From IMG/VR virus record IMGVR_UViG_3300045988_002368, positions 1-5,730 of that record: 5,730 nt of DNA, one strand, 5' to 3'. The notes under the pieces are model-generated. The model was not told where the DNA came from and made no database searches. It saw only the letters and a list, made by a program, of their open reading frames with translations. The position numbers and the translations under genes are program-made. The DNA comes from a virus. This document shows positions 1 through 5,730 of the stretch, piece by piece. Position 1 is the stretch's first letter. Every line of letters begins with the position of its first letter.

Positions 1-55
1 CCTTTGTCTTGCATTGTTCCATAAAATCTGTGTTTTCGTACTTTAGCCGGTTTTC
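1..55. repeat. Terminal redundancy, copy 1 (identical to 5676..5730). It marks the closure of a circular genome.
   Basis: A base-by-base comparison of cctttgtcttgcattgttccataaaatctgtgttttcgtactttagccggttttc at both ends shows an exact 55-nt match. Confidence 0.95.
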
Positions 56-976
56 CGCGATTGCCGCTGTTTGTCTGTTTTGCTTAATTCTCCACAATCT
101 TTGTGGATTTTCCGCTTCCATCATTTTTTCGTAATAACGTGGAATTTGTGCGTGTTTGCCGTTTGTACATTGGATGTATCCTTGTCTCCAGATTTCTGCT
201 TTGTGCTCTTGATAGTAGTGGTCTCCTAAGCCCGGCTTAAGGCTCATACATGCAAAAGGCTTTTGTTGCCCTAGTTCGTAGTATGCGTTTGCCTTCTGGC
301 CGTCTATCTCGTACATTTTTTTGGTAACGTATCCTGCAACATATCTATATGTCTCTGGTACTGCTTGTGCTATTTGTATTTGACCCATGCCCCATAGGTT
401 TGCTAGCCATTCACTTGTGAAATATCCGTTGTGTTGTATCTTGTATAGGTGCTTCAAATCTGTTGGTTGCCATCCGTATAGTATCATATGATAGTGCGGT
501 CTTGCTGTTTGTTCTCCGTACTCTCCCGCCACAAAATAGCGTAATTTGCCCCTGTAAGCTTTTCTAAGGCGTTTTAAGAATTTTTGAACATCAGTATACA
601 GCAAAGTTTGGACGCTTTCAGGACTCTCCTCTCCCGGTTTCCAGGCGTATTGTACTTTTCGCATGATTTCGCCTGTGTTTACTATCATGCCCGGTACATG
701 GTCGTCGTCGTAGGTCAATGTTATAAACCAAACTTCTTCTCTTGGATAGTCTCGTGCTTCTAATTCTATTCTTGTTGTCCAGTCCTCTCTTTGTCTGATT
801 CTGCATCCTATACATTGCCCGCATGGTATCAACATGACATCTTTTCTATACATCAAATCTTCATACTTGAGCTGTTTCCCGCTTATTTCAGAAAAACGGG
901 AGAGTGAATACACCCTCCCGCTGATGTTTTTGTTTTTCGGGTTGTACAGCCTTATTAATGGCTTGTAACAACTCAT
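1..976 (-). CDS. Replication initiation protein (Microviridae VP4 / phiX174 gpA-like HUH rolling-circle endonuclease). This is the N-terminal 325 codons plus 1 nt. The ORF runs off the window start and continues on the circle at 5675..5632, giving 339 aa in total.
   Basis: Hand translation of the minus strand from ATG 976..974 gives MSCYKPLIRLYNPKNKNISGRVYSLSRFSEISGKQLKYEDLMYRKDVMLIPCGQCIGCRIRQREDWTTRIELEARDYPREEVWFITLTYDDDHVPG... with no stop down to position 1. RCR motif I is FITLTY (727..710). The HUH motif is RPHYHMILYG (HYH at 496..488). The double-tyrosine motif is YVAGYVTKK (343..317), compared with phiX174 gpA YVAKYVNK from memory. The PCGQCIGCR cysteine cluster is typical of gokushovirus VP4. 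The ATG overlaps the VP2 stop as ATGA (976..973). The ORF is missing from the supplied track, probably because it is open at the window edge. Confidence 0.9.
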   Translation of the reverse strand, partial: MSCYKPLIRLYNPKNKNISGRVYSLSRFSEISGKQLKYEDLMYRKDVMLIPCGQCIGCRIRQREDWTTRIELEARDYPREEVWFITLTYDDDHVPGMIVNTGEIMRKVQYAWKPGEESPESVQTLLYTDVQKFLKRLRKAYRGKLRYFVAGEYGEQTARPHYHMILYGWQPTDLKHLYKIQHNGYFTSEWLANLWGMGQIQIAQAVPETYRYVAGYVTKKMYEIDGQKANAYYELGQQKPFACMSLKPGLGDHYYQEHKAEIWRQGYIQCTNGKHAQIPRYYEKMMEAENPQRLWRIKQNRQTAAIAENRLKYENTDFMEQCKTK

Positions 977-1866
977 CTTAAATAATCACCTGGCTTTCGT
1001 TTTTCTCCGTATGTTCCAGTTTTGTCTTGTGGTTTTATTGCTCTGCTCTCGCCCGTTTTTGACTTTTTCGTTTCGCCACCGCCGGTTGCTTTCGGTACGG
1101 TTGCTTCTGTCTTTTCCATGGCTTTGTACGTTTTTAACAGGTCATCTACAAGTGCTTTTGGAGTGCTGTGACTTGTGCTTAGCTGACTTCCAACGGCTTC
1201 TGCAAGCTGATACCATTGTGAGTTGCTTTCCGACCGGCTGAAATAGCTTGTTGGCACGTTGCCATTCATTGTTGATACGCCTAGTGCGCTTGATGATGGC
1301 ATTCCCATGCTTGCGCCTGTAATTGTTGCTCCTGAGCCTCCTGGTGTGCTTGCTCCTCCGTTTGCGAATGCTAAAATAGGATTTAGTCCTGCTTTTCGCA
1401 TATCTTCCACGGCGCGTTGGTAGCTTGTATTGCTCATGCGCTCTTGGAAGTTTCTGTTTGCTAGCGCTTCGGCGCTGTTATAGTTCATTGCCGCATTTTG
1501 TTCGATGTGGTTATAGATTCCCTGTTGGATTGCTCCTAACGTGTTGTAACCCATCTGCATTAGCATGTTTTGGCGATTTGTTTTGCTTTGAAATGCGTTT
1601 TGCCCACCTTGCCAGCTGTAAAAACGGTCTAGATATTCCATGATTTTTTCGTCGTTTGTGCCGCCTTCACTGCTTGAACTGCTTATTCCACCGCCTTGAC
1701 TTTGACTTTGATTCCATCCTTGGCTTTGGCTGTCTGAGGTTTGTCCGAATTGGCTTGCTAGCCCTTTTCCTGCTAGCGTTAATGCGCTTGTTACTACTTG
1801 TGGATTGTTTGCGAGCCAGCTTCCAACGGCTTTTGCTCCTGCTCCTAGTGTTCCTAGTATCGACAT
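973..1866 (-). CDS. Minor capsid / DNA pilot protein (gokushovirus VP2-like, functional analogue of phiX174 H), 297 aa.
   Basis: The ORF is in the supplied track. It sits immediately after the major capsid gene. It has a Gly/Ala-rich hydrophobic N-terminus (MSILGTLGAGAKAVGSWLANN), and the segment SYQRAVEDMRKAGLNPILA contains the AGLNP-type motif I associate with microvirus VP2/pilot proteins. Its stop overlaps the Rep ATG. Confidence 0.8.
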   Translation of the reverse strand: MSILGTLGAGAKAVGSWLANNPQVVTSALTLAGKGLASQFGQTSDSQSQGWNQSQSQGGGISSSSSEGGTNDEKIMEYLDRFYSWQGGQNAFQSKTNRQNMLMQMGYNTLGAIQQGIYNHIEQNAAMNYNSAEALANRNFQERMSNTSYQRAVEDMRKAGLNPILAFANGGASTPGGSGATITGASMGMPSSSALGVSTMNGNVPTSYFSRSESNSQWYQLAEAVGSQLSTSHSTPKALVDDLLKTYKAMEKTEATVPKATGGGETKKSKTGESRAIKPQDKTGTYGEKRKPGDYLR

Positions 1867-1867
1867 T

Positions 1868-1894
1868 CAAAAATAGCCCGGATTTCTCCGGGCT
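1868..1894 (-). terminator. Intrinsic terminator / attenuator-like hairpin between VP1 and VP2.
   Basis: The minus strand reads AGCCCGGA-GAAA-TCCGGGCT (1894..1875), an 8-bp G+C-rich stem with a GNRA-type tetraloop. It is followed directly by ATTTTTG (1874..1868) and then the VP2 ATG (1866). Confidence 0.6.
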
Positions 1895-1904
1895 TCCTCC
1901 TTTC

Positions 1905-3554
1905 TTACAGTTTGTACAAGCCCGGTACACTGTATAGCGGCATCCGTCTTGTGGTTTTGTTTGCTACTCGGATTGCACCGAAAAATTGGGGCTCGTTTTG
2001 TACGATTAACGTTCTTGCGATTTCTGCTTTTCCTTCTGCCATCCAGCTTTGTGACAGTGTTGGCACGGCCGAATAGTTGTCGGCGTAATGCCAAAAATCC
2101 AGACTTCCGGTTGCATTGCTTCGCATTTTGCCCGATACTCGGTTAGGCTTCATTCTATAGTCTGCCCAAGCTTCCTGATAGCCAAACGTTTCCTCGTCTT
2201 CTGCCGTGCCGGTAAGCATGATTTCTTTTTTCTTTACTGGTTGTTCTCCCAAGTTGGCAAATTGTGGTACATAGTAGTCCAATCTGTCTTCTCTGCTCCA
2301 GAAACGTTCCAAGCCTTGTTGGTAACTGTGATTGTGTCGCACACAGCACACACCAATGATAAAACCGTGTTCTTCAAACGATTTGGTAAAGCTACTTTCG
2401 TTGATTGGTGTTACTGACATTGCACCGGTTTCACCAATCGGTGTATCCGTGTCGGTCTGTTGTCCGCTTGTCTGCACGATTTGATTCATATTTACATGGT
2501 ATCTTCCACCGCCAAGGTATTCCGGCACCTGTACGGTTTTGTCGCTGATTACCACGTTCCATAGTGCCTGTACCTGTTCGCGGTAACGGCTACCGCCTCT
2601 TGCGAGTGCCTCATAATACTGCTGTACTGCTACGGCTTTTCTTAGATCGTTGATTGTTGCTGTCGTTACGCTGCCGAGATCTGTGCCGAGATATGCTGTT
2701 TCTGCCCCTTGGATTCCGCTACTTGCTACTATTGCCGGTCTTTTTCCGGTTGTTTCTGTCGTATTGTAAATTTCTCCGTTCTGGTATAGTTTAATTGTGC
2801 CTGCCGCGGCCTTTTCGTTGGTCAGTTCGATGTTTTCATACAGTTTCACTGCCGCATTACCTTCCATCGGCAGTGACACAGCCGGCCCGCGTTGCGGATA
2901 AGGCAAACAGCTTGAGAAGTAGTCGTGGAAACGGTTTACCGGAAGACATCGCCCTCCGTTGATTGCGTTCTTCAGGTTCTCTTCAATTTTATTTTCATCT
3001 TGTGTGTCTTGGTAATTTATGTCTTCGCTGTTATTTTTCCACACTGCCGCATTGTCTACATTTTCGTCTCTGAAAAATTCATTCCAAATCATGACATAAG
3101 CGCGAATTGGCAAGGCGTTTACTGTAAAAGTTGCTTTTACTTTTGTTGGTACGCCCATGTAGTCTAGGATTGATGCTTCGTATGGATATCCGTTTTTTTC
3201 CGTTCCGTTTATTTTTATTTTTGGTACTTTGTAATTTTTTGTTGGCATCCATGGAGTACTCTCAACTTCTCCCATGAACTGTTTGAAATCACTCCACAGG
3301 ATACGGTTTGGACAATAGAAATAGTAGAAATCGATGAACGCGTCATCGAAAACAGGATATTTGGGTGTCGTCATTCTGATGATTGCCGCTGTGTCTACGT
3401 TGAAGGTATCGCCCGGCAATACTTCGTCAACATAGAACGGAATCAGTTTGCCGGAATCGAACGTTGTTAAAATCGTCTGGTCACGGTTAAAACGTGTTCG
3501 ACTTGCTTTCATTTCCGGAATCTGGTTAAAGTGTCGTTCATTGTTTCTGTTCAT
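1905..3554 (-). CDS. Major capsid protein (Microviridae VP1 / phiX174 F family), 549 aa.
   Basis: This is the longest ORF. The N-terminus MNRNNERHFNQIPEMKASRTRFNRDQTILTTFDSGKLIPFYVDEVLPGDTF matches the conserved gokushovirus VP1 N-terminal pattern (basic stretch, R-x-x-F, TTF-x-x-G-x-LIP, PGDTF). A Shine-Dalgarno sequence GGAGGAAGAGAATAA precedes the ATG, which abuts the VP3 stop. Confidence 0.95.
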   Translation of the reverse strand: MNRNNERHFNQIPEMKASRTRFNRDQTILTTFDSGKLIPFYVDEVLPGDTFNVDTAAIIRMTTPKYPVFDDAFIDFYYFYCPNRILWSDFKQFMGEVESTPWMPTKNYKVPKIKINGTEKNGYPYEASILDYMGVPTKVKATFTVNALPIRAYVMIWNEFFRDENVDNAAVWKNNSEDINYQDTQDENKIEENLKNAINGGRCLPVNRFHDYFSSCLPYPQRGPAVSLPMEGNAAVKLYENIELTNEKAAAGTIKLYQNGEIYNTTETTGKRPAIVASSGIQGAETAYLGTDLGSVTTATINDLRKAVAVQQYYEALARGGSRYREQVQALWNVVISDKTVQVPEYLGGGRYHVNMNQIVQTSGQQTDTDTPIGETGAMSVTPINESSFTKSFEEHGFIIGVCCVRHNHSYQQGLERFWSREDRLDYYVPQFANLGEQPVKKKEIMLTGTAEDEETFGYQEAWADYRMKPNRVSGKMRSNATGSLDFWHYADNYSAVPTLSQSWMAEGKAEIARTLIVQNEPQFFGAIRVANKTTRRMPLYSVPGLYKL

Positions 3555-3995
3555 TTATTCTCTTCCTCCTTCTTTTTCTTTTTTTGTTCCGGTTTCATAT
3601 GCCGCTTGCTGGTCATATTCTTTTTTGTATTTGCTTTCTTCTTCTTCTGCTTTTTTCAGTTCTTCAAGTTTCATGGCGTTTGCCTGTGCGGTCGCAATCA
3701 TACGATAATATTCGTGAATGTTTTGCGGAAATTCGGTGATATCTACTTCTGTTCCTTCCATTGCTCCTTCTGACAGACTTTTTAGAAATTGCGGGTCAAA
3801 GCTTGCTTTTCGGACAATGTTTTTGATATCACATTCGTCTGCATAACTTTCAATTTCTTGCTGGATGTCAATTGGTGTTGTTTCTTGTAAGACTTCGTCT
3901 CCTTTATCGTCTTTTGTCCAGACGTATTGTTTTTGGATTTTTTCTCCTGATTCAGAAAAGAAGGGCTTTCGCCCTTCCTCATATCGTTTATTCAT
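3555..3995 (-). CDS. Internal scaffolding protein (gokushovirus VP3-like), 146 aa. The start is moved to ATG 3995..3993.
   Basis: Translation gives MNKRYEEGRKPFFSESGEKIQKQYVWTKDDKGDEVLQETTPIDIQQEIESYADECDIKNIVRK... The ECDI-x-NI segment and the acidic, coiled-coil C-terminus fit the Chlamydia-phage VP3 scaffold family as I recall it. The sequence GGGAGGG (4009..4003) lies about 8 nt upstream of this ATG. The longer 182-aa reading in the track would overlap the upstream gene and has no ribosome-binding site. Confidence 0.75.
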   Translation of the reverse strand: MNKRYEEGRKPFFSESGEKIQKQYVWTKDDKGDEVLQETTPIDIQQEIESYADECDIKNIVRKASFDPQFLKSLSEGAMEGTEVDITEFPQNIHEYYRMIATAQANAMKLEELKKAEEEESKYKKEYDQQAAYETGTKKEKEGGRE

Positions 3996-4227
3996 TCGGC
4001 TTGCCCTCCCATACCTTTTCGGTATTATTTGTGAATGTGCCGAGTTCATCTTCAAACACTGCCAGTTTAAAGCCGGTGTAGTCGCCCGGTGCCTGTCCGA
4101 CAAACGTTTTTTCGTCCTTTGCCATCACATTACACATACGTGCGAACGTTGCGTTGTTTTTGCTCTCGCCTACCCATGCGTAGCACTTTGCCACGCTATC
4201 CCACAGGCCAAAGTATTCATGTTTCAT
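3988..4227 (-). CDS. Small conserved-looking non-structural protein, 79 aa (possibly ORF5/VP5-type). Function unknown.
   Basis: An AAGGAGA Shine-Dalgarno sequence lies upstream of ATG 4227. The stop (3990..3988) overlaps the VP3 start by 8 nt. The pattern YFGLWDSVAKCYAWVGESKNNATFARMCNVMAKDE...PGDYTGFKLAVFEDELGTF resembles the F-x-V-x-D-x-K-A...A-x-R-x-F...P-x-D-y-x-L...G-x-F-D small-protein family common in gokushoviruses. This is from memory and was not searched. Confidence 0.65.
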   Translation of the reverse strand: MKHEYFGLWDSVAKCYAWVGESKNNATFARMCNVMAKDEKTFVGQAPGDYTGFKLAVFEDELGTFTNNTEKVWEGKPNE

Positions 4228-4246
4228 GATATTTGTTCTCCTTTTT

Positions 4247-4369
4247 TTACAGGCGGATGCCGCCTCTCATAGGCTTCTGACTGAGGTTGATTGTTTTGGT
4301 TTTTCGTGCGGTTACGTTGAACATGCGGCGGTCTTTTCCGCCGCTCATCTTCTTACGATGCTGTGCCAT
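4247..4369 (-). CDS. Small basic DNA-binding / packaging protein (gokushovirus ORF8/VP8-like, analogue of phiX174 J), 40 aa. It is not in the supplied ORF track.
   Basis: Hand translation gives MAQHRKKMSGGKDRRMFNVTARKTKTINLSQKPMRGGIRL*. It has 12 K/R residues and 1 acidic residue in 40. The C-terminal MRGGIRL matches what I recall for chlamydiaphage ORF8-type peptides. GGAG (4380..4377) lies 7 nt upstream of ATG 4369..4367. The gene overlaps the upstream ORF end by 17 nt. The TAA stop is at 4249..4247. Confidence 0.75.
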   Translation of the reverse strand: MAQHRKKMSGGKDRRMFNVTARKTKTINLSQKPMRGGIRL

Positions 4370-4580
4370 TGTTATACTCCCTTCGCATTAGTTCCATTTC
4401 GATGCTGTTTGCAAAACTTTTCATTTGCCAAATTTCATCCATGAGCTTTTTAGCATCTTCAATGTTTGACACTTTTTTAACCATTTTGTAATTGCCATCG
4501 ATTTCTTTGTATTTTCGTTCGAGTAGTTTTTCTAGTTCTTCTTTGGGCTCATCACGTACATTCCATGTTTTTTGCATCAT
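4353..4580 (-). CDS. Hypothetical protein, 75 aa, highly charged and predicted helical (ORFan).
   Basis: Translation gives MMQKTWNVRDEPKEELEKLLERKYKEIDGNYKMVKKVSNIEDAKKLMDEIWQMKSFANSIEMELMRREYNNGTAS. An AAAGGAG Shine-Dalgarno sequence lies 7 nt upstream of ATGATG (4580..4575). It sits 4 nt after the preceding stop, and the gene packing is consistent with real coding. I recognise no family motif. Confidence 0.55.
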   Translation of the reverse strand: MMQKTWNVRDEPKEELEKLLERKYKEIDGNYKMVKKVSNIEDAKKLMDEIWQMKSFANSIEMELMRREYNNGTAS

Positions 4581-4584
4581 AGCT

Positions 4585-4701
4585 TTACTCCTTTTCATTG
4601 TTGCTATCGTGCAGTGCGTGGTAGATTTCGTCAAGCTTTTCGAGAATCTTCATCATAAGTTGGATTGCTTGCTTGACGTCTTTAATGGAAATCAGTGCCA
4701 T
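4585..4701 (-). CDS. Hypothetical micro-protein, 38 aa, single amphipathic helix (ORFan).
   Basis: Translation gives MALISIKDVKQAIQLMMKILEKLDEIYHALHDSNNEKE. The sequence AAAGGGGG lies 6 nt upstream of ATG 4701..4699. That ATG is 1 nt after the peptidase TAA (4705..4703). The longer 69-aa reading in the track overlaps the peptidase out of frame and lacks a ribosome-binding site. Confidence 0.45.
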   Translation of the reverse strand: MALISIKDVKQAIQLMMKILEKLDEIYHALHDSNNEKE

Positions 4702-4702
4702 T

Positions 4703-5095
4703 TTATACCCCCTTTCTGTATTTCGCTTTACGCACATCAAAGTGCACCCAGCTTTTGTATACGATAATGCCGCATTCATCCGGTACAATTTCATTCAGCT
4801 TGTTGGCAAGTTCTTTTGCGCTTATTCCATTAACTCGAATGTCTGCCGCCATACCGCGCATGTGGTAGCTGTATTTTGCTCCGTTGCATTTTTTGTTCCA
4901 CTCCGGCGTCCTGTATCCGCTAGTGATAACTACCGGCTTTCCTAGTTTATTTCGTAGAATGTCCAGGATGGTGTATAAGTATTCGTCAATGAAAACTATT
5001 GGACTTCCGTCTTTACAAGCAAATTCTTTTACTTTGAAGTGTCTTGTAAGCTGTATGTTTCCGTCAGTGTCTACAAGGTAGCTTTTAATGCTCAT
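4703..5095 (-). CDS. Zinc D-Ala-D-Ala carboxypeptidase-type peptidoglycan hydrolase (peptidase M15A / Peptidase_M15_3, YcbK-like fold), 130 aa. Putative endolysin.
   Basis: Translation gives MSIKSYLVDTDGNIQLTRHFKVKEFACKDGSPIVFIDEYLYTILDILRNKLGKPVVITSGYRTPEWNKKCNGAKYSYHMRGMAADIRVNG...SWVHFDVR. Family hallmarks are present: F-x-x-x-EF-x-C, SGYR, H-x6-D (H78 at 4864..4862, D85 at 4843..4841) and a terminal V-H-x-D (H118 at 4744..4742). This is a complete Zn-ligand triad. GAGGAA lies 6 nt upstream of ATG 5095..5093. The 148-aa version in the track starts at a TTG that is actually the promoter -35 box. Confidence 0.85.
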   Translation of the reverse strand: MSIKSYLVDTDGNIQLTRHFKVKEFACKDGSPIVFIDEYLYTILDILRNKLGKPVVITSGYRTPEWNKKCNGAKYSYHMRGMAADIRVNGISAKELANKLNEIVPDECGIIVYKSWVHFDVRKAKYRKGV

Positions 5096-5120
5096 GGCTG
5101 TTTCCTCGCTTTCTGTTTTA

Positions 5121-5167
5121 ATAATATCATTTTTTTTGTCGCTTGTCAATTGTTTTTTGGTTTGAAT
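5121..5167 (-). promoter_or_regulatory. Near-consensus sigma70/sigmaA promoter with an extended -10 and an A-rich UP-like element. It likely drives the whole gene block.
   Basis: The minus strand reads attcaaaccaaaaaaca-a-TTGACA-agcgacaaaaaaaa-TGa-TATTAT. The -35 TTGACA is at 5149..5144, the spacer is 17 nt, TG is at 5129..5128, and the -10 TATTAT is at 5126..5121. The predicted start site near 5114 gives a leader of about 19 nt carrying the peptidase Shine-Dalgarno sequence. Confidence 0.7.
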
Positions 5168-5242
5168 GGCGCTTTAGCGCCTTGCCGTGCGTAGCGTATG
5201 CGGAGCTCGGCTAATCCATTCCTTGTAAGCGCTGTGCGCGTT

Positions 5243-5414
5243 TTCAACACTTTCAACATTTTCAACAAGTTTTCAACAAAATGTTGCACAATTATTTTGG
5301 TCATTTTGACGGACTTTCAACAATTCAACAAGTTTTCAACAAATCTTTCAACTTTCTTTTTGGTGCTTTTTCTTTGTATCTACGTAAAGAAAAAGCACTT
5401 ATCAACTTTTCAAC
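5243..5414. repeat. Iteron array of ten TTCAAC(A) repeats, arranged as two clusters of four plus a pair.
   Basis: TTCAACA occurs at 5243, 5252, 5261 and 5272, and at 5316, 5324 and 5335. TTCAACT occurs at 5347. ATCAAC is at 5401 and TTCAAC at 5409. Spacing within clusters is 8-12 nt. The longer unit CAACAAGTT occurs three times (5264, 5327, 5435). Confidence 0.85.
5363..5398. other. Perfect 13-bp inverted repeat (hairpin/cruciform) embedded in the iteron array.
   Basis: GTGCTTTTTCTTT (5363..5375) is followed by the loop GTATCTACGT (5376..5385) and then AAAGAAAAAGCAC (5386..5398). All 13 pairs were checked individually. Confidence 0.85.
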
Positions 5415-5502
5415 TGTTCCTACTACGTCTACTACAACAAGTTATATATACCCCAAACACCCCTTGAAGCGTAGCGAATAGGGGTAGGGGTAGAACGTAC
5501 TC

Positions 5503-5545
5503 CGTGCGCGCACGCGTGCGCGCTTCGTGCGCGTGTGCGCGCGCG
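5503..5545. repeat. G+C-rich strictly alternating pyrimidine/purine tract (Z-DNA/cruciform-prone) containing an 18-bp perfect palindrome.
   Basis: 5503..5523 (21 nt) and 5526..5545 (20 nt) alternate Y-R without exception and are separated by TT. GCGCGCACGCGTGCGCGC (5506..5523) is its own reverse complement. 35 of 43 bases are G or C. Confidence 0.85.
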
Positions 5546-5547
5546 AA

Positions 5548-5571
5548 ATAGGCTGTTTATCTTATAGGCTG
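5548..5571. repeat. Direct repeat ATAGGCTG x2, 16 nt apart, between the G+C tract and the post-Rep hairpin.
   Basis: ATAGGCTG is at 5548..5555 and again at 5564..5571. TTTATC (5556..5561) and GATAAA (5571..5576) also form a short inverted repeat around the second copy. Confidence 0.5.
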
Positions 5572-5580
5572 ATAAAGTGA

Positions 5581-5613
5581 TAGCCCAGTACTTACTTGAT
5601 AGGTACTGGGCTA
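5581..5613 (-). terminator. Long hairpin 18 nt downstream of the Rep stop. It is a possible end-of-operon terminator and/or an origin hairpin.
   Basis: TAGCCCAGTAC (5581..5591) pairs perfectly with GTACTGGGCTA (5603..5613). The stem can extend by T.G, T-A and A-T to leave the 5-nt loop CTTGA (5595..5599). On the minus-strand RNA it is followed by UCACUUUAUC, which is only a weak U-tract. Confidence 0.4.
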
Positions 5614-5631
5614 GGTGACACCATGACACTG

Positions 5632-5730
5632 TTATAGTGTCCCTCTTTTTTTCATTTGCTTTTTGATTACTCTCTCCTTTGTCTTGCATTGTTCCATAAA
5701 ATCTGTGTTTTCGTACTTTAGCCGGTTTTC
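5632..5730 (-). CDS. C-terminal end of the same VP4 replication initiator. 5676..5730 duplicates 1..55, and the unique tail is 5675..5632 including the TAA stop at 5634..5632.
   Basis: Reading on from position 1 across the junction in the same frame gives ...NTDFMEQCKTKERVIKKQMKKRGTL*. The frame arithmetic closes: 976 nt + 44 nt = 1020 nt = 340 codons. Confidence 0.85.
   Translation of the reverse strand, partial: ENRLKYENTDFMEQCKTKERVIKKQMKKRGTL
5676..5730. repeat. Terminal redundancy, copy 2 (identical to 1..55).
   Basis: As for copy 1. The implied unit length is 5,675 nt. Confidence 0.95.

Follow-up and report, generated by a model that had tools for sequence, protein, structure and literature searches.

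A predicted M15 zinc peptidase, fixed in a clade of gut gokushoviruses and without a detectable holin partner, as a candidate endolysin

Few phages are as abundant in the mammalian gut as the gokushoviruses. In phiX174, likewise a microvirus, host lysis is brought about by protein E, a small membrane protein that is overprinted on gene D and acts as an inhibitor of MraY and not as an enzyme; in a review of 2023, single-stranded DNA phages are said to lyse by single-gene lysis without degradation of murein. Genes for peptidases have also been described in these viruses. In their account of human-associated Microviridae, Roux et al. (2012, PLoS One, PMC3394797) report M15_3 peptidase genes in 11 members, five of them Gokushovirinae; four of the gokushovirus copies group with homologues from Faecalibacterium prausnitzii that adjoin a holin, repeated horizontal transfer was inferred, and an endolysin role and possibly Gram-positive hosts were suggested. 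Cultured marine microviruses carry M15 peptidases as well, and Kirchberger et al. (2022) regard peptidases as recurrent lysis-associated accessory genes of microviruses, with documented exchange between microvirus families. The present study concerns such a gene, which encodes a predicted M15-type zinc peptidase, in the IMG/VR virus record IMGVR_UViG_3300045988_002368. The stretch analysed covers positions 1 to 5,730 of that record and is called the window below. Both the gene and the role it probably has were already described in 2012, and the window adds an example, not a discovery.

The closest described systems are the M15_3 genes of human-gut Gokushovirinae and Alpavirinae (Roux et al. 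2012; KT264791, KX513868, MG945334/MG945447), which belong to the same family as the gene of the window. The gokushoviruses KT264791, KX513868, and MG945334/MG945447 share its gene order (VP4, intergenic region, peptidase, small open reading frames (ORFs), VP5, VP3, VP1, VP2), their peptidases are 68-89% identical to that of the window with the same link to Faecalibacterium, and there is no substantive difference between them. The gene is annotated as ‘peptidase M15’ in KX513868 and as ‘similar to peptidase’ in the MG945xxx records, and has no annotation in KT264791; it lies at the same position in the two records inspected, KX513868 and MG945334. Overall, a tblastn search of the GenBank phages found the peptidase at 68-89% identity in about 20 gokushovirus records. 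Relatives occur on 233 IMG/VR contigs, the best 80 of which are 74-90% identical, and in 1335 clusters of a set of 5.8 billion proteins, where the top 120 of the 1335 are at least 79% identical and come mostly from contigs no longer than 6 kb, often about 5.7 kb in length. The 80 IMG/VR contigs closest in VP1 (identity of 73% or more) include 43 complete genomes, every one of which has the peptidase; the three members without it are incomplete contigs. An original prediction, made from the sequence of the window alone, had held that M15 ORFs are sporadic and rare in microviruses; in view of these counts and of the report of 2012, that part does not stand.

The interpretation favoured here, to which a probability of about 0.6 is given, is that the peptidase is a horizontally acquired endolysin that was taken up without its holin and that would need a separate membrane lesion. 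Some role of the peptidase in lysis is likely; the way in which it would cross the membrane is far more conjectural. The evidence lies in the identity of the enzyme, in the lack of transmembrane proteins around it, and in the genes that neighbour its homologues in tailed phages.

The gene product is, with near certainty, predicted to be a zinc peptidase of the M15 family with the LAS fold. In the profile hidden Markov model search it matched PF08291 (Peptidase_M15_3) over profile positions 2-108 of 108, at 78.5 bits against a cut-off of 23.2 (E 5.2e-22), and more weakly PF05951, the DUF882/M15_2 model (E 7.7e-8); it also matched PHROG 894, ‘endolysin’, with an E value of 1.5e-41. With the NCBIfam model NF053624 (MepK, an L,D-endopeptidase equivalog), it scored 43.7 bits against a cut-off of 185, which indicates a relationship below the equivalog level, and an identity as MepK was dropped for that reason. 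The zinc ligands H78, D85, and H118 (H-x6-D plus a distal H) do not vary in 23 close relatives or anywhere in an alignment of 48 sequences that includes homologues at only 43-51% identity. Therefore, the M15-type assignment with an intact H-x6-D...H triad, as originally predicted, is borne out.

The structural comparison agrees with this. An AlphaFold2 model based on the 48-sequence alignment, which includes homologues of the Faecalibacterium-phage type, reached a predicted local distance difference test score (pLDDT) of 93.5, and its top fold match in the PDB is 1lbu, a Zn D-Ala-D-Ala carboxypeptidase (root-mean-square deviation 2.3 A, E 5.7e-4, probability 1.0). This model superseded a first one from a shallow alignment of 23 near-identical sequences, which had a pLDDT of 71 and a weak match to 1lbu. 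The 32 best PDB matches are LAS proteins without exception; the LAS matches include VanXYc, VanY, the Ply500 endolysin, LdcB, ChiX, LysB4, LysECD7, and hedgehog N-domains, with VanX further down. PDB searches by sequence also reach 1lbu (E 1.6e-3 with the single sequence and 2.3e-7 with a profile), and the segment H78..D85 aligns with its metal motif SRHMYGHAAD. The enzyme 1lbu (Streptomyces albus G, MEROPS M15) and VanY, VanXY, and VanX have the LAS fold and the motif SxHxxGxAxD ... H in common with the peptidase of the window. However, 1lbu is only about 24% identical to it over about 90 residues and has an extra N-terminal wall-binding domain, whereas the peptidase of the window is a single domain with neither a wall-binding domain nor a signal peptide, and the substrate specificity of 1lbu and the Van enzymes is not transferable to it. 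Over 47 genomes the variability at the three codon positions is 0.135/0.078/0.335. This concentration of substitutions at third codon positions indicates purifying selection on the gene.

To describe the hydrophobicity of the encoded proteins, the Kyte-Doolittle mean over 19 residues (KD19) was calculated for ORFs of at least 25 amino acids in all three frames of the coding strand, both in the window and in 47 complete relatives rotated to a common origin (1374 coding-strand ORFs). Within this scope there is no transmembrane-grade ORF in the window, where KD19 has its maximum at 1.22, and none of the 1374 ORFs of the relatives reaches 1.6, the maximum being no higher than 1.55. The absence of a holin thus holds across the whole clade, not just in the window genome. 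The peptidase itself has no signal peptide or signal-anchor-release segment by this measure: its maximum of 0.86 is not N-terminal, and its N-terminus, MSIKSYLVDTDGNIQLTRHF, is polar. An amurin of the phiX174 E type, which is small, often overprinted, and has an N-terminal transmembrane helix, was not found among the ORFs scanned, so that no counterpart of E was found in the window. All three absences had been claimed for the window by the original prediction and are upheld, those of a holin and of an E-type protein now for the relatives as well. Of the canonical holin-endolysin cassette, the clade has the muralytic-type enzyme without an export signal; no partner transmembrane protein was found.

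The highest KD19 values in the relatives (1.4-1.55) belong to the N-terminus of VP2 (METLLKLLPSLMQGLSMLTGIIT), which in most of them is the most hydrophobic segment of the proteome, though not of transmembrane grade. In the window, the VP2 N-terminus is a Gly/Ala-rich version (MSILGTLGAGAKAVGSWLANN) with a KD19 of just 1.08, below transmembrane grade. Several other hydrophobic ORFs were considered. An antisense ORF of 91 amino acids at 4492..4767 (+), with a KD19 of 3.2, was rejected as a hidden holin on account of stop codons in 29 of 46 relatives; it is a compositional by-product, since the antisense strand is T-rich. Hydrophobic ORFs in the contigs L127 and L134 were discarded, as they lie in foreign segments of oversized, probably chimeric contigs. 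In L140, a complete relative with a divergent copy of the peptidase at 50% identity, a hydrophobic ORF of 29 amino acids with a GTG start (3251-3340, KD19 2.05) has been inserted between VP5 and the VP8-like gene; it occurs only once and may be due to chance.

In tailed phages, the nearest homologues of the peptidase are the endolysins of the Faecalibacterium phages FP_oengus, FP_Toutatis, Lelie, and Aster, which are 44-45% identical over the full length. Like the peptidase of the window, these are single-domain M15_3 proteins (137-138 amino acids) with the H..D..H triad, and they have neither a wall-binding domain nor a signal peptide. Two of these phages, FP_oengus and Lelie, were inspected; in both, the next gene encodes a protein with a strong transmembrane segment (KD19 2.57 and 2.47, respectively), and in FP_oengus an annotated holin follows one gene beyond it; the microvirus has no such gene. 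The same relationship provides a clue to the host of these never-cultured viruses. A search of 185,579 species genomes with VP1 gave no close relative, and a profile rescan gave distant matches only. One of the viruses found is an integrated gokushovirus with a VP1 45% identical (CAZYSS010000055.1, 3729-9083; L089), on a 14.5-kb contig from a metagenome-assembled genome of an uncultured member of the Oscillospiraceae, where it is flanked by tgt, yajC, and a gene for a XerC/D-like recombinase on one side and by radA on the other. No M15 peptidase was found in this virus; its ORF of 221 amino acids (4628-5293) has M23-like HxxxxxD ... HxH motifs and no Pfam hit. Microvirus prophages in Firmicutes isolates have been reported before. 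Since the homology to Faecalibacterium-phage endolysins and the prophage in the Oscillospiraceae genome point the same way, a monoderm host of the Oscillospiraceae type is plausible, not proven.

The position of the gene behind a promoter is also conserved. The promoter-like site upstream of the peptidase (-35 hexamer at 5149-5144, -10 hexamer at 5126-5121) matches the consensus at 11 of 12 positions and is the best in the window. Since 7% of dinucleotide-shuffled genomes hold a match as good, the site taken alone is merely suggestive. However, a site with at least 10 of 12 matches lies upstream of the peptidase in 41 of the 47 complete relatives; the spacer is almost always 17 nucleotides (nt) long, and in most cases TG precedes the -10 hexamer. 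About 19 of the 47 genomes, that of the window among them, have their best site ending 23-26 nt ahead of the start codon, and the peptidase is therefore the first gene after the promoter in these genomes, as had been stated for the window at the outset. In about 17 of the 47 the best site lies about 195-280 nt upstream, with one extra small ORF between. This ORF of about 70-90 amino acids (...YELRSWNDDDTMTTVLKIKDEPKNAKKRAREYANEHKGIYSLYKVEEV...) occurs for instance in the relatives L001, L012, L017, L022, and L046 and not in the window. An alternative TTG start at 5149 sits within the -35 hexamer, and the form of 130 amino acids is therefore the likely product.

The two ORFans that follow the peptidase are real genes of 38 and 75 amino acids (orf38 and orf75), not the ORFs of 69 and 93 amino acids that a mechanical listing gives. 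The ATG of orf38 lies 1 nt past the peptidase stop codon. Its product (MALISIKDVKQAI..ILEKLDEIYHAL) is net acidic with a clean 3-4 heptad, coiled-coil-like pattern, and that of orf75 is charged and probably helical. Both genes have an excess of variability at the third codon position (0.18/0.17/0.34 for orf38 and 0.21/0.14/0.32 for orf75); a full-length homologue of orf75 is found in 24 of 46 relatives. For orf38, neither Pfam nor PHROG gave a match, for orf75 no family match was obtained, and no homology of either to the holin-region proteins of FP_oengus and Lelie was found. The gene orf38 also lies beside the VP8-like gene in four gokushoviruses of 5.2-5.4 kb (MG945423, MG945136, KT264799, and MG945157; L090-L093), in which no peptidase is detectable and no hydrophobic ORF was found among those scanned between VP4 and VP3. 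Therefore, orf38 was rejected as a dedicated partner of the peptidase and is a core gene of the lineage. Since these relatives share orf38 and the VP8-like gene, the lineage must have another way out of the cell, and the peptidase cannot be its only lysis function, as more distant gokushoviruses with the shared small genes lack it. In place of the peptidase, these four genomes have other small ORFs between the intergenic region and orf38, e.g. one for a Cys-rich protein of 58 amino acids; this slot behaves as a variable cargo site.

A scheme for the origin and action of the peptidase can be potentially described as follows. An ancestor of the clade may have captured the gene from a tailed phage with Oscillospiraceae (Faecalibacterium-type) hosts, in which it would have belonged to the lysis cassette, and the capture would have taken the endolysin alone and left the holin behind. 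The gene would be transcribed from the conserved promoter, of the sigma-70/sigma-A type, as the first gene of the main transcription unit, and its product, made without a signal peptide, would build up folded in the cytoplasm. It would act only after a separate viral function had breached or de-energised the cytoplasmic membrane; this function would have no classical transmembrane helix and would be shared with the sister viruses that lack the peptidase. The peptidase would then cut the peptide part of the murein and aid the release of progeny; it would thereby speed lysis up or make it more complete, an effect that may count most where the wall is thick.

Several points weigh against this scheme. 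The factor that would cause the membrane lesion was not found among the ORFs scanned, so that the key step is a gap, and a simple Kyte-Doolittle window would miss both ORFs below 25 amino acids and amphipathic membrane-active proteins. An endolysin in the cytoplasm normally does no harm when there is no holin; the gene is nonetheless universal in the clade, which argues for an efficient, unseen route of access. The inference of an Oscillospiraceae host comes from 45% identity to phage endolysins and from one distant prophage. Finally, a literature search found no experimental characterization of any microvirus wall hydrolase, which is absence of evidence only; the original remark that such enzymes were never characterized appears to hold.

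Among the other explanations, export without a classical holin survives best, and it is unlikely. A host pathway, orf38, orf75, or the VP2 N-terminus would carry or release the enzyme, in a chaperone- or pilot-mediated manner. In mycobacteriophage Ms6, LysA is exported with the chaperone Gp1, which is a precedent. The start of orf38 directly behind the peptidase, its presence in 46 of 46 relatives, the coding constraint on both small genes, and the hydrophobic VP2 N-terminus of most relatives are consistent with such a route. However, the occurrence of orf38 in genomes without the peptidase implies another primary role, its acidic, coiled-coil-like product is unlike peptide antibiotics, about 40% of relatives lack orf75 or have it in degraded form, and the VP2 N-terminus of the window falls short of the hydrophobicity seen in most of the others. 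It is likewise improbable that the clade in general lyses by an endolysin independent of any classical holin, be it through destruction of precursors or through a new route via orf38, orf75, or the VP2 pilot. The idea of the original prediction to express the peptidase together with the two ORFans behind it is still sensible, though orf38 is not a dedicated partner.

The first of these two variants corresponds to an enzymatic amurin, which is very unlikely by itself. A cytoplasmic peptidase would hydrolyse murein precursors (D-Ala-D-Ala, UDP-MurNAc-pentapeptide, or the lipid II stem) and starve wall synthesis, and growing cells would lyse as with phiX174 E, with no need for a holin. This would account for the absence of both signal peptide and holin. 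The closest solved folds (1lbu, VanXYc, and VanY, with VanX lower) act on the D-Ala-D-Ala termini of precursors, VanX is a cytoplasmic enzyme, and the first position after a strong promoter would suit a stoichiometric precursor sink. However, the tailed-phage homologues of the same size and 44-45% identity stand in holin cassettes and are thus sacculus-acting, and cells tolerate cytoplasmic endolysins such as T4 E, T7 lysozyme, and the T5 L-Ala-D-Glu peptidase as long as their membrane is undamaged.

An entry enzyme is slightly less probable still. In this case the peptidase would be packaged in or on the virion and would open a local hole in a thick monoderm wall for DNA delivery by the VP2 pilot. 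The probable hosts are thick-walled Clostridia, wall hydrolases are present in virions of small or tailless phages (P5 of phi6 and P7 of PRD1), and action from outside requires no holin. However, the nearest homologues are annotated endolysins of lysis cassettes and not virion genes, the peptidase has no domain or extension for docking to VP1 or VP2, a T=1 capsid has a small spare volume, and relatives with the small genes of the lineage infect without it. An accessory role after lysis, in which enzyme freed by a lysis that occurs anyway would degrade wall fragments or the walls of neighbouring cells and so free virions from debris or expose receptors, fits the existence of peptidase-less relatives and the lack of a visible export route, and is just as hard to credit as an entry role, given that retention of the gene throughout the clade and strong purifying selection on it, in a genome of 5.7 kb, point to a direct, large effect on fitness and that no wall-binding domain would hold the enzyme on debris.

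Whichever of these applies, the clade is a compact system for testing how a holin-less endolysin reaches the murein, as it combines a single predicted endolysin with two or three tiny conserved proteins and has no holin. To the earlier reports, this study adds the clade-wide absence of a holin, the standing of orf38 as a core gene and not a lysis partner, and the observation that the peptidase is fixed in the clade and absent from more distant gokushoviruses with the same small genes.

The window represents a complete genome of a gut gokushovirus: an exact direct repeat of 55 nt at its ends (1-55 = 5676-5730) is an assembly overlap, and the circular genome has 5675 nt. All its genes lie on the minus strand, and the features are listed in Table 1. 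The context is that of the Gokushovirinae, namely a Phage_F VP1, a VP2 pilot, a Chlamy_scaf VP3, a VP4 Rep, and VP5 on one strand of a circle within about 4.5-6 kb. The best megablast match is Gokushovirus WZ-2015a (KT264791), with 84% DNA identity over 75% of the genome, followed by Microviridae from pig and human faeces, so that the genome falls among the gokushoviruses of the mammalian gut. With these values and a peptidase at most 90% identical to any relative, it is a new sequence variant.

Table 1. Positions of genes and other features in the window, with the basis of each assignment.
Feature	Position	Strand	Basis or remark
VP4 replication initiator (Rep), 339 aa	976..1, then across the circle junction 5675..5632	-	
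VP2 DNA pilot protein	973..1866	-	phrog_8742, E 8e-110
VP1 major capsid protein	1905..3554	-	Pfam Phage_F, E 1e-134
VP3 internal scaffold	3555..4103	-	Chlamy_scaf; real start probably inside the ORF
VP5	3988..4227	-	Phage_ORF5 match and PHROG search
Basic protein, 40 aa, probably DNA-binding VP8/J analogue	4247..4369	-	phrog_10695, E 2e-11; found in 45/46 relatives
orf75, 75 aa	4353..4580	-	Codon-position variability; AAGGAG site 7 nt upstream of ATG
orf38, 38 aa	4585..4701	-	Codon-position variability; present in 46/46 relatives
Predicted M15 (PF08291, LAS-fold) zinc peptidase, 130 aa	4703..5095	-	Pfam, PHROG, alignment, fold; ATG 5095, stop 4705-4703
Shine-Dalgarno GAGGA	5103..5107	-	7 nt before the peptidase ATG; read from the sequence
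Promoter-like site	5121..5149	-	TTGACA, 17-nt spacer, TGnTATTAT (extended -10)
Conserved non-coding block, about 90 nt	5156..5245	-	88-92% identity over 47 genomes
Iteron-like GTTGAAA array, eight copies	5242..5414	-	Motif count against shuffles
Terminal repeat	5676..5730	.	55-nt duplicate of positions 1-55

Upstream of the promoter, the intergenic region holds a block that is more conserved than the peptidase gene itself. Its variability at the three codon positions (0.09/0.15/0.11) has no codon periodicity, it contains the hairpin GGCGC-TAAA-GCGCC at 5181-5168, and neither a match in Rfam nor a significant single-strand fold was found for it; it may serve as an origin, as a packaging signal, or in regulation. 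The block forms the C-terminal half of an ORF of 52 amino acids at 5304..5146 (-), which was rejected as a partner gene or as an N-terminal extension of the peptidase since this conserved half lacks codon periodicity; gene callers use three different frames there among the relatives, and the longer peptidase gene calls in relatives run into non-coding sequence, read in three different frames. Just upstream of the block and the promoter, the motif GTTGAAA is present in eight exact copies, every one of them in this intergenic stretch and on the coding strand, against 1.44 expected genome-wide, and none of 200 shuffles had as many; by its sequence, the array resembles iterons. Further upstream, at about 5490-5545 and 5578-5622, there is a GC-rich tract of alternating purines and pyrimidines (CGCGCGCGCACACGCGCACG...) in a genome of about 43% GC, together with an inverted repeat (AGCCCAGTAC ... 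GTACTGGGCT) shortly past the Rep stop codon.

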